Source of the DNA: Shigella phage CM1 | Sequence record: MK962749 | DNA: 64,000 nt | Direction: 5' to 3' (one strand) | Shown here: positions 3,561-44,412 of the stretch, one piece after another | Layout of the letters: each line of letters begins with the position of its first letter | Numbering within the stretch: position 1 is the first letter of the stretch | Program-made: the position numbers and the translations under genes | Notes under the pieces: model-generated | The model's database searches: none | Told to the model about the DNA's origin: nothing | Seen by the model: only the letters and a program-made list of their open reading frames with translations

Positions 3561-4274
3561 ATGCTGAATACTAAATTAATTGACAACCTGGAAAAACTAT
3601 CCCAACCTGAAAACTACCTTTGGTCTGCCAACTGGGTGGAAAACTGGAACCGTGTGGCAGCTAAAGTGAAAAAATCATACACACCATTCGAATTACAGCT
3701 TAGCTTCATTGAGGAAGAGTTCAATGAAGTTTTGGAAGAGCTGGAGAAAGGTGATGGTGGAGATCACCTGCTAAAGGAGGCCTGCGATCTTCACGTTGTC
3801 ACAAGTTATGCAGCTTATCTTGTTAATGACAATCACGAAAAGTGGTCAAACCTGTTTGATAATCCACAAGGTCTTAAGTTCAAGATCGGTGAGTTCTATG
3901 ACACACTGATCGCTGCGAAAAACACATCCAAGCAAAGAGCGTCAGCTTACCGTTTAGCGGAGTTGTCAACAGCTTTGCTGTTCCAGCTTCGCGGCGATGT
4001 GTGCGGGATGATGCGTAAGGTTCTCAAATCGAATGACAGCAAGTTTGCACGGGTCAACCATCTACGGTATTCACACGGTGCCAGTGCAGATATGCCTGCT
4101 GAACAACTCATAGAGTTGGAGATTAAAGATCTTGAGCGACGCTTTGATGGTCGATATGAAGGTTTTGTTGCTAAGGAAGAATTCTACAACGGTAATAAAG
4201 TTATCATATTCCTTGACAGTAAAGGTAAGATCATGAAGCCTTCGAGCTTCAAGGATGTAGCAGAGTATATTTAA
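3561..4274 (+). CDS. possible MazG-like all-alpha NTP pyrophosphohydrolase
   Basis: 237 aa; ExxE...ExxD acidic pattern (IEEEFNEVLEELEKG ... KEACDL). Confidence 0.35.
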   Translation: MLNTKLIDNLEKLSQPENYLWSANWVENWNRVAAKVKKSYTPFELQLSFIEEEFNEVLEELEKGDGGDHLLKEACDLHVVTSYAAYLVNDNHEKWSNLFDNPQGLKFKIGEFYDTLIAAKNTSKQRASAYRLAELSTALLFQLRGDVCGMMRKVLKSNDSKFARVNHLRYSHGASADMPAEQLIELEIKDLERRFDGRYEGFVAKEEFYNGNKVIIFLDSKGKIMKPSSFKDVAEYI

Positions 4275-38606: not shown

Positions 38607-38912
38607 ATGGCTAAATCTAAAGTTGAACTGTTCACCTCTCTTCCTTCTGACACTGCAGAGCGTGATCGCCTTCGCAAGACAATCGAAGAACTGGTGGAAC
38701 TCCAACTTCAGATTAAAGATCTGAAAGATGCCATTAAGGATATCATTCTCGTTGAGAAGCAGGATCACCTGTATTCTCCTAAATTCATCAAATCTCTGGT
38801 GGCTACCGAGTTCGATATTCGCTATGAGGCTGAAAAACGTCGAGCTAAAATCGAAGAAGAGGTTGAGCACATGTCCGAGGCAGACATTTTGTTCAAACGC
38901 TCTGTAGAATAA
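38607..38912 (+). CDS. hypothetical coiled-coil protein
   Basis: 101 aa with RBS AAGGAGA. Confidence 0.45.
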   Translation: MAKSKVELFTSLPSDTAERDRLRKTIEELVELQLQIKDLKDAIKDIILVEKQDHLYSPKFIKSLVATEFDIRYEAEKRRAKIEEEVEHMSEADILFKRSVE

Positions 38913-39863: not shown

Positions 39864-39965
39864 ATGGAATACACAATGAGAACATTGTCTGAAGTTTTAG
39901 TGGTGATCCTGATGATCATTACGTCCATAGCGGCTGTTGCCGGAATACTCACGGGTGGAACATGA
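39864..39965 (+). CDS. 33-aa membrane peptide
   Basis: RBS GGAGAA; MEYTMRTLSEVLVVILMIITSIAAVAGILTGGT; stop overlaps next start. Confidence 0.35.
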   Translation: MEYTMRTLSEVLVVILMIITSIAAVAGILTGGT

Positions 39966-40165
39966 TCAACACACATGCATCTGAAGGAGTGACGACCATA
40001 TGTAACCTGGATGAGCCAGTTAAAGAGGAAAACTTAGATTCTGATGACTCTTCATCTTCGTCCCAGACAGATCCTGAGGCTGATGACCTAACGTGGGAAG
40101 ACATCGTAGACATCTGGTTCTCTATTATGCCTGAGCACGAAGAGTTCAGAGGTGGTAGACTATGA
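39962..40165 (+). CDS. hypothetical acidic protein
   Basis: 67-aa ORF. Confidence 0.3.
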   Translation: MINTHASEGVTTICNLDEPVKEENLDSDDSSSSSQTDPEADDLTWEDIVDIWFSIMPEHEEFRGGRL

Positions 40166-40286
40166 AGCACCGAGCCCACACAGGTTCCTCATGCTAAAGC
40201 ATGGCCTGAAGAGGCAAACGTGCATAATTCCAGCGTATTGGAACGTATAAAACCCTGTTCACACTCTCATTTCCAGAGGAGATTTC

Positions 40287-40502
40287 ATGAAGATAGAAAT
40301 ATTTGGTGGAGCTGACAACACTCGTGGCCTGATTTACCTTGAATTCGATGAATCATACCTGCCAGAGGTGTTAAATATAGACTCTGTTGCTGAGGCTTTG
40401 GGAGTAAACCCTAAAGAACTCCACTCTTGTGCTGAGATCGATGGTTGGGAAGAGACCATGAACATTGATTTCAGTGAAGTAGAGGATGAACCGCTGGACT
40501 GA
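40287..40502 (+). CDS. small acidic protein (MKIEIFGG N-terminus)
   Basis: 71-aa ORF with RBS AGAGGAGA; last plus-strand gene before the gene desert. Confidence 0.4.
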   Translation: MKIEIFGGADNTRGLIYLEFDESYLPEVLNIDSVAEALGVNPKELHSCAEIDGWEETMNIDFSEVEDEPLD

Positions 40503-41533
40503 CACACAATTAGCTGCCCGGCTAAAGTGCTGGAAGCGCACCTATAACACATCTTTCAACTAAATTTCCCACCACCACAATCACTTACCTTCCACACATG
40601 ACTGTTTGCTTGTTTAGTGAGCAGTCATGCCTTAACATTCTTGCCTATCCTGATAAAATTAAGTTCTTCTCTTTTCTTTTACCGAGTAATTCGGGTTTTC
40701 TGTTCTCTTCGGTTTGAAGGGGTATGGAGATACACCTGAGTGAACAGGGTGAACAACCGAACATTTGGCTATGGCATTAGCATGGCGAAGCGGACGGGTG
40801 ACGAAAGAGGGGCCGGAGGACACCAGTCACTGCCATATGATATATGGGTGATAACCTGAAGAGTCTGAATAAGTGTTTAAGTACCAGTCAGAGGAAAAGG
40901 TGAATGGTAGCCGAAGGGGGAGGGGGGTTTCTTGTATCTTTAATTTGTATATTATGTATACACTTGTAAACCAATATCATCTAAATCTGTTTACCACACA
41001 AAGTGGATAGAGACAAATATTACCTATTAAACTTGAATTATTTATAGAAAATACCACAACACCACTTAAGTCTTTGATTTTACACACAAATCTTACAGAT
41101 ATTCAACCCCCATATTTAACATACCTGTAACATATTCCATACTCTACCCGCCTGATCAATTTCCCCAACTACATCCCCCATATTTCCCCCGTCTGTACTA
41201 CCACTGCCCCGCCGGGAGTCCCGTCATATCTGGCTTTCCAGCAAATATCACACCCACAAATATCATTGCCTGAAGAGGGTTTCATCCCATAATACATGCC
41301 TTACCTGAAGAGCGCTTCATACACCACGTAAATTTTTTAATTGACCTGCAATTTCTCCTCAGATATCCCCCTGTCCCGCCGGAGAGGTTGTCTTTTCCCA
41401 CACAGACCTGAAGAGTCAGTCAGAAATATCTGAATAGTCCCAATTCTACCACGATTTTGACCTGACCTACAGGGAGGCCCGAAGGGTCTAGCTTTCAGCT
41501 AGAGCCCTTGCAGGACCTACAGGAGCGCTGCCA

Positions 41534-42579
41534 GGCGGACGGAATGGGAATACTTCTCATTCTTATAACAATTCTCAAATATCGAGGCAGTGAGAGAAAT
41601 TAATAGGCCAGGCCGTTCACACAGTGGCACAACATTTGCAACCTATTTTGTGTGGATGAATGAGAATACCTATCATTGTGAGAACTGTTATCATTACGGG
41701 CAATTTAACATAATACCCATTATGCGCACCACTGGCGATACATACAGGGATTGATAACATGGGTTACTGTTTACGCACATAACAATTATATTTCTTATTA
41801 TTTGTGGGGGATATAGTTAGCAGCCAATAGATTAGATATTGACCTGCAGACTTCTGACCGTCTAGACGTCTAAACGCCCACACATCAAGGGTTATACATA
41901 CATTACTGAATGTAAACAAGGCCGCAAAAATGCTACCATACCAGTTTGTAAATTTTTCATGCAGCACTTGACAAAGAGGAGGAAAACTTGTCTGACATAC
42001 TGTGACATAATATGACATAATAGTGACACACTGGGCATACTCAACACACTGGATACGGCGGACGGAATGGGAATACTTCTCATTCTTATAACAATTCTCA
42101 AATATCGAGGCAGTGAGAGAAATTAATAGGCCAGGCCGTTCACACAGTGGCACAACATTTGCAACCTATTTTGTGTGGATGAATGAGAATACCTATCATT
42201 GTGAGAACTGTTATCATTACGGGCAATTTAACATAATACCCATTATGCGCACCACTGGCGATACATACAGGGATTGATAACATGGGTTACTGTTTACGCA
42301 CATAACAATTATATTTCTTATTATTTGTGGGGGATATAGTTAGCAGCCAATAGATTAGATATTGACCTGCAGACTTCTGACCGTCTAGACGTCTAAACGC
42401 CCACACATCAAGGGTTATACATACATTACTGAATGTAAACAAGGCCGCAAAAATGCTACCATACCAGTTTGTAAATTTTTCATGCAGCACTTGACAAAGA
42501 GGAGGAAAACTTGTCTGACATACTGTGACATAATATGACATAATAGTGACACACTGGGCATACTCAACACACTGGATAC
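41534..42579. repeat. tandem direct repeat, 2 copies of about 523 bp
   Basis: Minus-strand track ORFs 41764-42153 and 42287-42679 share an identical 96-aa C-terminal segment; likewise 41892 and 42415; both offsets 523 nt. Confidence 0.85.
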
Positions 42580-42599
42580 AATAACAATTGTTACTATTG

Positions 42600-42960
42600 C
42601 ATGCCTCACTGTTCACGCATAGATGATAAGCCATGCCATTCGTTTGCATGAAAACAATTAACAAGATAACAATCGACAAGTTAATAATCTTTCGCTGGCT
42701 ATGCCAGGTGACTAGGTCACCCCTTCGGGCGTTCCTATGACATAATATAAAAGCAGGGCAACTATTAGCAGATCTATAGTTGCCTTGCTTGTTATGTCAT
42801 GATTAACTAAATACAAGGCAACTATGATCTGATTAATAGTTTGCAGACAAACTATCACGGGGGTGATGGTTACTGCTTTTATATTATGTCGCGACTCCGT
42901 CGCGCCATGCCATTCGTTTGCATAGTTGCCTTATTGTTACAGATAAAATAATTGTATTGT
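42600..42960. repeat. cluster of inverted and direct short repeats (iteron-like)
   Basis: GGCAACTAT-N10-ATAGTTGCC; 18-bp inverted pair GACATAATATAAAAGCAG / CTGCTTTTATATTATGTC about 110 bp apart; GCCATGCCATTCGTTTGCAT twice; palindrome GGTGACTAGGTCACC; approximate. Confidence 0.6.
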
Positions 42961-43539
42961 TAATTATTTCTTATCTTTCTATTAGTCATCTAATGATTTC
43001 AGTTAATATAGTAACGTACAGTAAACATTAGACGACTAAAGATTTCTCTGCTTATGGTAACCTAACGTGACAATTCCAGACTGTTTACGAAAAATGTTGA
43101 CACCTGGGCCGATTTATGTTATGCAGTTTACACGAATAATTATTTTATGCAGGTATTGACTATTCCGTTATTCTATGGTTGGAATAAATGCTTAGCAGGC
43201 TATAGAATGGCGAGCGTACGTAAATTCTGAGATCTGGCGGCTATAGTTATACTCAATTTTTCACGTAGAAAACGTTTTTGTAGTTATGTAAGTGTATGAC
43301 TTATAAAGATTTTTAGTTGTTGACAAGCTATTGAAGATATGCATCAGGTTAAATTTTGTGCAATAGCGGCATTACGTGCACTTTTGGGAGAGAAAACGGG
43401 TAAAAATGGACTTGCTACCACACAATGAAAAATTATGCAATAGTTATTTTCCATGTATATTTGTACAGTATGTGGGATTGATGGCTAGTCCATTATTCCA
43501 CTTGCCAGGTAGGGCCGTTTATGGTAGGAGAAGAGCAGA

Positions 43540-43570
43540 CAAAGAGAAAGGGGCCTAAGCCCCTTGATAA
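43540..43570 (-). terminator. rho-independent terminator at end of minus-strand gene array
   Basis: Hairpin AAGGGGC-CTAA-GCCCCTT, T-rich tract following on the minus strand; approximate. Confidence 0.5.
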
Positions 43571-43583
43571 TTCAGTTAAAAAA

Positions 43584-44003
43584 TTATAATGATTCGTATA
43601 TTTCAAAAATCCGATTTGCCAGGTCGTTACGGTAGCGGAATTTTTCCTCACGTTTGATCATAAGATCTTTATAGCCGTACTCTTTAAGCACTTCATTAAC
43701 TTTATAGCGGCATACTTTCATATTATCCTGCGCGTCACCAATAAATCTGTTGCTATGGTGCATGGCTTTAATTTCTTCTTCCAGGACCAGGGCAACTATG
43801 CGGACCGGATCAAGCTGATAGGCGGTAACATCCATGCGGCATTGTAAACGGCTTTTTACGTCTGCCACCGGATATACTGCAACCTCTTCCCCGTCAACAT
43901 TGACAATAATTAGTTTACCATCGATTTCGAATCCTTTCGCCGCCGGACCGTGACAAAAAGCGTTATCAAAGCTATATGCCGGATTATTAGATTTAATGTT
44001 CAT
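43584..44003 (-). CDS. hypothetical protein
   Basis: 139-aa ORF. Confidence 0.45.
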   Translation of the reverse strand: MNIKSNNPAYSFDNAFCHGPAAKGFEIDGKLIIVNVDGEEVAVYPVADVKSRLQCRMDVTAYQLDPVRIVALVLEEEIKAMHHSNRFIGDAQDNMKVCRYKVNEVLKEYGYKDLMIKREEKFRYRNDLANRIFEIYESL

Positions 44004-44148
44004 GGTGTTTTTACCTCTTAGTTAATTTTCTTACAACTTCCCTTTAAAAAAGAATATAGCAAAACTGCCGATCCCTGTCAACCAGGGATAGCATAATTTT
44101 TTATGTGATCAAGGGGCTTTATTGCCCCTGACCATGTAACTTGTTGTA

Positions 44149-44412
44149 TTATTTGTTGCTCATCCAGTTTTCCCAAGCTGCCTGATAATCTGCCTCACTA
44201 CGGCGGATCTCTTCTTGCTCTTCAAGGCGGATCTCTTCTTCCAGGTACCCCAAGATGTCAGCCTTTTTAGTCTGGCGTAGCATCCAGTCATCTTTTTTGC
44301 GAGTGAAGATCTTATAAGCTTTCTCGCAAACCTCTTTTTTGCTACCTTTCTGGACTTCAAGAACACGATAAGCCATATATTGAACTAATTTGAGCTGATC
44401 AAGACGTTTCAT
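44149..44412 (-). CDS. hypothetical protein
   Basis: 87-aa ORF. Confidence 0.45.
   Translation of the reverse strand: MKRLDQLKLVQYMAYRVLEVQKGSKKEVCEKAYKIFTRKKDDWMLRQTKKADILGYLEEEIRLEEQEEIRRSEADYQAAWENWMSNK

Follow-up and report, generated by a model that had tools for sequence, protein, structure and literature searches.

Arrays of short words recognized by a terminase small subunit are known from lambda (R1-R3 of cosB), P1 (the pac hexamers) and SPP1 (the pacL and pacR boxes). In T7, PacB in the concatemer is the recognition site of the small terminase, and cleavage by the large subunit takes place at PacC (PMC9860248); Mydovirus KPP-1 has been reported by PhageTerm to be of the T7 type (PMC9862379). 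Here we analyze an array of five copies of the nonamer CCTGAAGAG in a 64,000-nt stretch of Shigella phage CM1 DNA (MK962749), the whole of which we call the window. An earlier note, made from the letters alone, had placed five same-orientation copies within about 1.2 kb of non-coding DNA just upstream of a tandem repeat, had judged such a cluster very unlikely by chance, and had proposed an array of binding sites for a terminase small subunit, an origin-binding protein or a partition-like protein. In the literature searched, we found no description of the array or of packaging signals for rV5-like phages or Vequintavirinae, and nothing usable on the 9-mer, on Vequintavirinae transcriptomes or on T7 SRL/SRR.

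The five copies are identical, lie on the + strand and start at 40205, 40855, 41269, 41304 and 41407, at most 5 nt from the approximate positions first given. Site 1 (40205..40213, context GGCCTGAAGAGGC) is located between two small open reading frames (ORFs; 39962-40165 and 40287-40502). Site 2 (40855..40863, context AACCTGAAGAGTC), site 3 (41269..41277), site 4 (41304..41312) and site 5 (41407..41415, context GACCTGAAGAGTCAG) all fall in the ORF-free 1,031 nt between the last + strand ORF and position 41534, and the description of the array as non-coding was essentially right. Sites 3-5 are contained in 147 nt, with sites 1 and 2 respectively 1064 and 414 nt further upstream of site 3; site 4 shares with site 3 a 35-nt local duplication, TTRCCTGAAGAGSGYTTCAT. 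A noncoding gap of ~3 kb (40503-43583) separates two convergent clusters of small ORFs.

The 64-kb window contains seven exact copies of CCTGAAGAG, all on the + strand, where 0.48 are expected from dinucleotide-preserving shuffles, none of which yielded seven. The two copies outside the array (15157 and 22914) are Pro-Glu-Glu codons in open frames of 202 and 429 codons. The cluster is also robust to the choice of the best word (the look-elsewhere effect), because five copies of any 9-mer within 1.3 kb were seen in 0 of 200 order-3 Markov simulations of the window; the top cluster of any 9-mer held three copies in 176 simulations, two in 23 and four in one. No one-mismatch copy of CCTGAAGAG was found from 36.8 to 44.2 kb of the window. 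The array is thus confirmed as real, non-random and of a single orientation, and the earlier judgment about chance is borne out.

The tandem repeat downstream of the array had been placed correctly, but its nature had been missed: it is a direct terminal repeat (DTR), and this identity is the key to the context of the array. A repeat search and a script showed that 41534-42579 is a perfect 523-bp × 2 duplication, which was missed by Tandem Repeats Finder with its period limit of 500. Copy 1, the right-end DTR (41534..42056), and copy 2, the left-end DTR (42057..42579), are 100% identical, and the left boundary falls between 41533 and 41534 (gctgcca^GGCGGACGG, the caret marking the boundary here and below). 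The region is 89-97% identical to ~120 records of Vequintavirus (rV5-like E. coli myophages), most of which have a single copy of the 523-bp unit. In the alignments, the Gotham and HdK5 records (GGCGGACGGAATGGG and GGCGGACGAAATGGG at their start) have their first base exactly at window position 41534, the annotated right repeat of Gotham (459 bp) corresponds to 41534-41992, and the last base of the bov10K2 and bov25_3 records is the exact equivalent of 41533. Terminal repeats of 459 bp with one specific packaging start have been described for Gotham (PMC7471380), and terminal redundancies of 458 bp for EdH4 and HdK5 (PMC6563267). Judged from these alignments, the tandem layout is the right end of the linear record joined to its left end. 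Since the DTR edge coincides with the record starts of phages with defined repeats, the five copies of CCTGAAGAG are placed 127-1329 nt inward from the right genome end, within the unique DNA that borders the repeat on its left (sites 1 to 5 at -1329, -679, -265, -230 and -127), adjacent to a genome terminus as terminase sites are. The DTR of the window is 64 nt longer than the 459 bp of Gotham, the extra length containing three to four TGACATA repeats (41993-42030). A scan of IMG/VR for the DTR start, AATGGGAATACTTCTCATTC, returned two contigs only.

The earlier note had proposed to count the 9-mer genome-wide and in shuffled sequence and to look for it in homologous regions of related phages. 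The shuffles gave the excess reported above. In the complete genome of Gotham (137,025 bp), CCTGAAGAG has nine copies, eight of them + strand and one - strand. The five that fall within the final 1.75 kb are the only ones outside annotated coding sequences; three of the other four are in-frame Pro-Glu-Glu. By clustering, CCTGAAGAG ties with AGCTTTTTC for first place among the 9-mers of this genome. Each of the five sites has its counterpart at the homologous position in 14 relatives, the exceptions being five single-base losses, no two of which affect the same genome; site 2 is invariant in 15/15 aligned genomes. Flanking bases vary around a fixed 9-mer core: TTG, TCA or TTT precedes site 3, while site 5 is preceded by A, G or T and followed by T or C, with no compensatory changes. 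Such variable flanks without compensation favor reading of the 9-mer sequence itself over a conserved hairpin. A small - strand ORF of Gotham that runs over sites 3-5 (F10B_0172) was considered and rejected: the copies fall in different frames (as computed by hand from coordinates), and no such ORF is preserved in the window.

Beyond the genus, blastn with the window region gave no match outside Vequintavirus, and tblastn with the terminal small ORFs of the window gave none in KPP-1, 4MG or CR8. The other genera nevertheless share the architecture of the window, namely convergent ORF clusters, a noncoding gap and the repeat. In an unbiased enumeration of k-mers in [-1400,+150] of the boundary in four genera, CCTGAAG was the top k-mer with 14 copies, CTGAAGA and AAATATC had 12 each, and CCTGAAGAG was the top 9-mer. 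We then scored copies on the same strand with ≤1 mismatch to CCTGAAGAG within 1 kb upstream of the boundary, with Poisson p values. PVP-SE1 (Seunavirus) has five copies from -553 to -173 (0.09 expected, p = 5e-8); 4MG (Seunavirus) has three, at -914, -309 and -63, the last exact and abutting AAATATC (0.14 expected, p = 4e-4); and CR8 (Certrevirus) has three, at -962, -284 (exact) and -142 (0.11 expected, p = 2e-4). The PVP-SE1 copies, same-strand CCTGAAGTG, CCTGAAGAG or CCTAAAGAG, occupy 390 nt of the noncoding gap (1544-1932 of the stretch compared, L152). In KPP-1, the copies at -1327 and -1275 are exact and the one at -317 has one mismatch; a further exact copy, at +87 and thus inside the DTR, is inverted; over 8 kb of KPP-1, CCTGAAGAG is again the top repeated 9-mer. 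In Av-05 (Avunavirus), three TCTGAAGGG/TCTGAAGGA copies start 12, 27 and 55 nt upstream of the boundary, and TH18 carries CTGAAG-core copies (CCTGAAGGG, TCTGAAGTA and TCTGAAGGG) at the same offsets. Hena1 (Henunavirus) has two ATATCCCTGARYGTCC repeats, at -98 and -68. The lineage variants are hence CCTGAAGAG in Vequintavirus, CCTGAAGWG in Seunavirus, TCTGAAGGR in Av-05 and CCTGARYGTCC in Henunavirus; a CTGA-core variant proper to each lineage, in one orientation and at the same boundary, is the pattern expected under co-evolution with a binding protein.

As a control, four mid-arm loci of 16 kb each, drawn from three genera, were examined and contained no copy of CCTGAAGAG. A scan of IMG/VR for pairs of motif copies spaced 15-45 nt was uninformative: its hits, at least 120 unrelated contigs, were apparently dominated by in-frame coding repeats. 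A DsbA-like regulator gene (38607-38912) was tried as a synteny anchor and rejected; in Seunavirus, Mydovirus and Certrevirus it is mid-arm, tens of kb from the repeat, and the 4 × 16 kb reached through it are the control loci above.

The left boundary of the repeat reads gctgcca^GGCGGAC in rV5-like phages, gctgcca^GGCATGG in CR8, ggtgcta^GACGGAC in KPP-1, tgtgtta^GACGGAC in 4MG, gtgcta^GACGGAC in PVP-SE1, tctgtta^GACGGAC in Hena1, agggtta^GACGGAC in Av-05 and agggtta^GGCAGAC in TH18. Most genomes examined thus share the signature (T/C)(T/C)A^G(G/A)CGGAC, from which CR8 (GGCATGG) and TH18 (GGCAGAC) deviate, and this signature is likely to be the context of the terminase cut site. The boundary lies at 4017 of compared stretch L024, 18036 of L145, 2097 of L152, 2386 of L150 and between 519 and 520 of L149 (reverse complement). 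The KPP-1 repeat published at 116,316-116,829 (PMC9862379) and the terminal repeat present in the annotation of the Hena1 record validate the boundaries inferred in 4MG, PVP-SE1, CR8, Av-05 and TH18.

A second oriented motif family, AAATATC, is found at 41243-41249, 41258-41264, 41424-41430 and 41577-41583 of the window, and also at 42100. The copy at 41577..41583 (+ strand) is at +43 of the DTR, and AAATATC occupies +43/+44 in rV5-like phages, KPP-1, 4MG, PVP-SE1, CR8, Av-05 and TH18; in Hena1, a AAAATATC block follows the boundary. The genera examined have one to four same-strand AAATATC copies within ~400 nt upstream of the repeat, often 0-8 nt from a copy of CCTGAAGAG: site 3 starts 4 nt after one, site 5 ends 8 nt before another, and in 4MG the two words abut (AAAATATCCTGAAGAGG). 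Inside the DTR, a core of 27-31 nt (ATTTAACATAATAC..TTATGCGCAC; 41703..41732 on the + strand, also 42226-42255) has ~90% identity to 4MG and CR8. The equivalent block of 4MG is 97% identical in Av-05 and TH18, the sole similarity detectable in that search. With offsets that stay constant from genus to genus among those compared, three elements (the boundary word, AAATATC at +43 and the core of the DTR) are better candidates for the cleavage signal than the CCTGAAGAG array.

What, then, might the array do? An exact core with free flanks, one orientation, confinement to one terminus, recurrence across genera and lineage variants would all be explained by a sequence-specific DNA-binding protein, and the presence of the same motif at the same place in related genera suggests recognition sites for a protein in end processing or packaging. 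We tentatively favor, with less than even confidence, the view that the array is a set of cis-acting sites for a conserved end-associated protein, most likely accessory pac-like packaging sites. A protein conserved in Vequintavirinae would read the five CCTGAAGAG copies sequence-specifically at the genome end, the copies serving as marks on the unique DNA immediately inward of the right terminal repeat. With these marks, the terminase itself or a partner would locate the concatemer junction and cut at the conserved TGCCA^GGCGGAC, and the array would act as an upstream, lineage-tuned accessory to a cut-proximal cleavage signal. We infer the binding itself, the small terminase or an associated factor as the binder, and the promotion of packaging by that binding. 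Recognition for packaging is the best-precedented role, since the T7 small terminase recognizes PacB in the concatemer. The non-random, oriented array inside the terminus, together with its recurrence across genera, makes terminase or packaging the most natural of the three options of the earlier note; its idea of a protein-binding array holds up to that extent, while the origin and partition options find poor support.

A number of observations weigh against accessory packaging sites. Spacing between the sites is irregular (650, 414, 35 and 103 nt), and sites 1 and 2 lie 0.7-1.3 kb from the cut site, far beyond the known compact terminase sites. The array is one-sided, unlike the T7 repeats, with no copy at ≤1 mismatch to its right (41416-44217). 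KPP-1 has just one copy, with one mismatch, within 1 kb upstream of its boundary, and Hena1, whose terminal repeat is annotated, has neither CCTGAAGAG nor CTGAAG within 5 kb. Point mutations have removed single sites in some relatives, which indicates that no site is individually essential. Variable columns make up 11% of the motif versus 23% of other noncoding sequence, a marginal difference (Fisher p = 0.07), and because the whole region is highly conserved, this constraint on the motif columns is only suggestive. Finally, several copies of CCTGAAGAG coincide with transcription signals.

These coincidences, namely promoter overlap at two of the five sites and the terminator-loop and promoter copies in KPP-1 and 4MG, make a transcriptional role the main rival and a serious one, although we consider it rather unlikely. 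The copies would be operators for a conserved transcription regulator, or integral to promoter/terminator modules, and would govern the final early genes of the right arm as well as read-through toward or into the repeat. Site 1 overlaps a sigma-70-like promoter whose CATAAT (TATAAT in some relatives) starts 18 nt after the motif start, and site 3 overlaps a promoter-like TTGCCT-N16-CATAAT. The distance to CATAAT/TATACT is 18-19 nt at these two sites and at the KPP-1 copy at -1275, but sites 2, 4 and 5 have no acceptable -10 element at a matching distance, and a -10 hexamer at a fixed distance is thus not common to all copies. In KPP-1 the copy at -1327 forms the loop of an intrinsic-terminator-like hairpin (GGAGCCTGAAGAGGCTCC-TTTTCTTTT), a module also present in 4MG; in both phages the next copy, 52 nt past the terminator-loop copy, is in a TTGACC-N17-TATACT promoter (that of KPP-1 being the copy at -1275). 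Site 5 (GACCTGAAGAGTCAG) shares 14 identical nt with the KPP-1 promoter copy and, by eye, also aligns with the promoter directly after the last ORF in KPP-1 and 4MG; the 4MG promoter so aligned keeps its -35 and -10 and loses the exact motif, which speaks against a regulatory function. The upstream copies are all sense to right-arm transcripts, and a regulator of the subfamily-conserved family phrog_639 is encoded 1.3 kb upstream in the window. On the other hand, CCTGAAGAG does not recur in the genome's many other promoter regions or in the 4 × 16 kb of right-arm control sequence, and the Av-05 and TH18 copies, at a distance of 12-55 nt from the cut site, have no gene downstream of them. A role at the RNA level, with CCUGAAGAG in right-arm transcripts either folding into a small hairpin or loop (CCU-GAAG-AGG) or being read single-stranded by an RNase or another RNA-binding protein, is improbable in our estimate. 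It would account for the five copies being sense to the + strand transcription units and for about half of the copies followed by G extending into hairpins, as in rV5 site 1 (GCCTGAAGAGGC), KPP-1 and 4MG (GGAGCC..GGCTCC), CR8 (GGGCC..GGCCC) and PVP-SE1 (GGAGCCTGAAGTGGCTCC). It would not account for the uncompensated flank changes at sites 3 and 5, for GACCTGAAGAGTC-type copies incapable of a stable stem, or for the inverted KPP-1 copy; nor was there an Rfam match, and the 4-nt loop is not the pentaloop of boxB.

Local duplication and drift in a fast-evolving noncoding spacer, with functionless copies carried along by linked elements, would fit the 35-nt duplication that comprises sites 3 and 4. 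It would fit, too, the high conservation of the flanks within the genus, where site-specific constraint is not demonstrable. Against it, the 9-mer or its core recurs at the homologous place without alignable DNA or, where tested, ORF homology, and the five copies are exact and of single orientation with no decayed one-mismatch copies nearby. This absence of function is already disfavored, and we give it only a small chance. Still less probable are replication-origin iterons flanking an AT-rich unwinding region. An AT-rich stretch with 27-30% GC does lie between site 2 and sites 3-5 (40925-41075), just before the C-rich tract described below, and the GC skew changes sharply here. However, the uneven site-to-site distances given above are not those of iterons, the AT-rich stretch varies more than any other part of the region (50-60% variable columns), the other genera keep the motif with only ~335-670 nt from the last annotated ORF to the boundary, and a reading of their gaps showed no AT-rich segment like it. 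Three more candidates, compared with consensus sequences only, were rejected: a hammerhead core (CUGANGA) lacks stems II/III, a sigma-32 promoter would have the wrong spacing, and an Eco57I/AcuI site (CTGAAG) gives no rationale for clustering.

Site 2 is located within an ultra-conserved, G-rich noncoding island (40670..40930, + strand, ~260 nt). Across 15 Vequintavirus genomes, most 30-nt bins of the island have 0-3% variable columns, and it is more conserved than the neighboring ORFs. A promoter-like TTAACA-N16-TAAAAT (40632-40659) precedes it. Folded as RNA, the island scores only z = -1.7 for the + strand and -0.3 for the - strand, and Rfam 15 returned only chance-level matches, with E above 4. 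The island may encode an undescribed RNA or be an element densely bound by proteins. Sites 3-5 lie in a C-rich, G-poor tract (41000..41450, + strand) with GC skew down to -0.59; the tract resembles a Rho-utilization tract at the end of the right-arm transcription units, and C-rich runs are also found upstream of the boundary in KPP-1, 4MG and CR8. We found no tRNAs in the window and no Pfam match for the eight flanking small ORFs; PHROGs assigned the flanking small ORFs to families of unknown function, with the phrog_639 regulator as the sole exception. To the right of the repeat, at the left end of the genome, 42748-42939 holds AAGGCAACTAT-type repeats in both orientations, with several inverted-repeat pairs, and large palindromes occur at the equivalent place in KPP-1, 4MG and CR8. 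Nineteen 'Campylobacter phage' records match the region at 88-97%, the same range as the E. coli rV5-like phages, and one of them (MG065661.1) is flagged UNVERIFIED; the host labels of the 19 records are probably wrong.

Phages of the rV5 type are widely isolated and used in phage-therapy and biocontrol cocktails. The physical genome end is now pinned in the window by a boundary signature common to the genera examined: a GRCGGAC-type site, AAATATC at +43 and a 30-nt core. This signature can be used to locate termini in unannotated Vequintavirinae and in assemblies that wrongly show a 'tandem repeat'. The oriented array and the boundary elements together are testable pac-site candidates, albeit no new principle, and would help to engineer transducing particles or biocontained phages, as done for T7. 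Were the array irrelevant to packaging, it would still mark an unusual regulatory module that ends the early right arm.

Of the described systems, boxB of the lambda nut sites resembles the array in sequence, a likeness that is no more than a lead. That of nutL reads GCCCUGAAGAAGGGC, and its loop is a pentaloop. The two have the string CCUGAAGA in common, and some copies of CCTGAAGAG, sense to early transcripts, are likewise enclosed in GC-rich hairpins. In contrast to boxB, the loop has 4 rather than 5 nt, the stems are unconserved and without covariation, no boxA-like element was seen, and the array is at the end of a transcription unit instead of just after a promoter; it is thus not a boxB array. 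With lambda cosB, P1 pac and SPP1 pac the array shares the presence of several copies of a short word beside a terminase cut site, which would likewise be read by a DNA-binding subunit. Those arrays are compact (~100-200 bp from the cut) and footprinted, and only sites 3-5 or the Av-05 copies fit their scale.

T7 offers the other close parallel. It too has short direct terminal repeats (160 bp) and short repeats of a single orientation in the adjoining unique DNA. A check of the T7 sequence gave same-orientation CCTAAAG arrays at both ends, with 11 copies in the first 340 nt of the left end and two immediately to the left of the right repeat. This word is one base away from the CCTGAAG core, with no homology implied, and one copy at the right end of T7 reads ACCTAAAGAGG, where CR8 and PVP-SE1 carry CCTAAAGAG variants. 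The function of the T7 short repeats has itself, to our knowledge, not been established. T7 has its repeats densely set, 13-30 nt apart, on both flanks of the terminal repeat and within it, whereas the copies in the window are sparse (35-650 nt apart) and flank it on one side only. By analogy, the repeats with a YCTGAAG core (CCTGAAGAG, CCTGAAGWG and TCTGAAGGR) might form a packaging 'address' used throughout the subfamily, its CCTRAAG likeness to T7 being no coincidence: unrelated coliphages with short DTRs would require such an element to make terminal repeats from concatemers, and would have come to it by convergence or through a shared host factor. We regard this as a speculative idea with a slim chance of being correct. 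As the dense two-sided pattern is absent and a terminase role is only proposed, we do not file the array as T7-type or as a terminase array. From its sequence and position, we place it in the general class of oriented short-repeat arrays that lie beside phage termini and pac sites.

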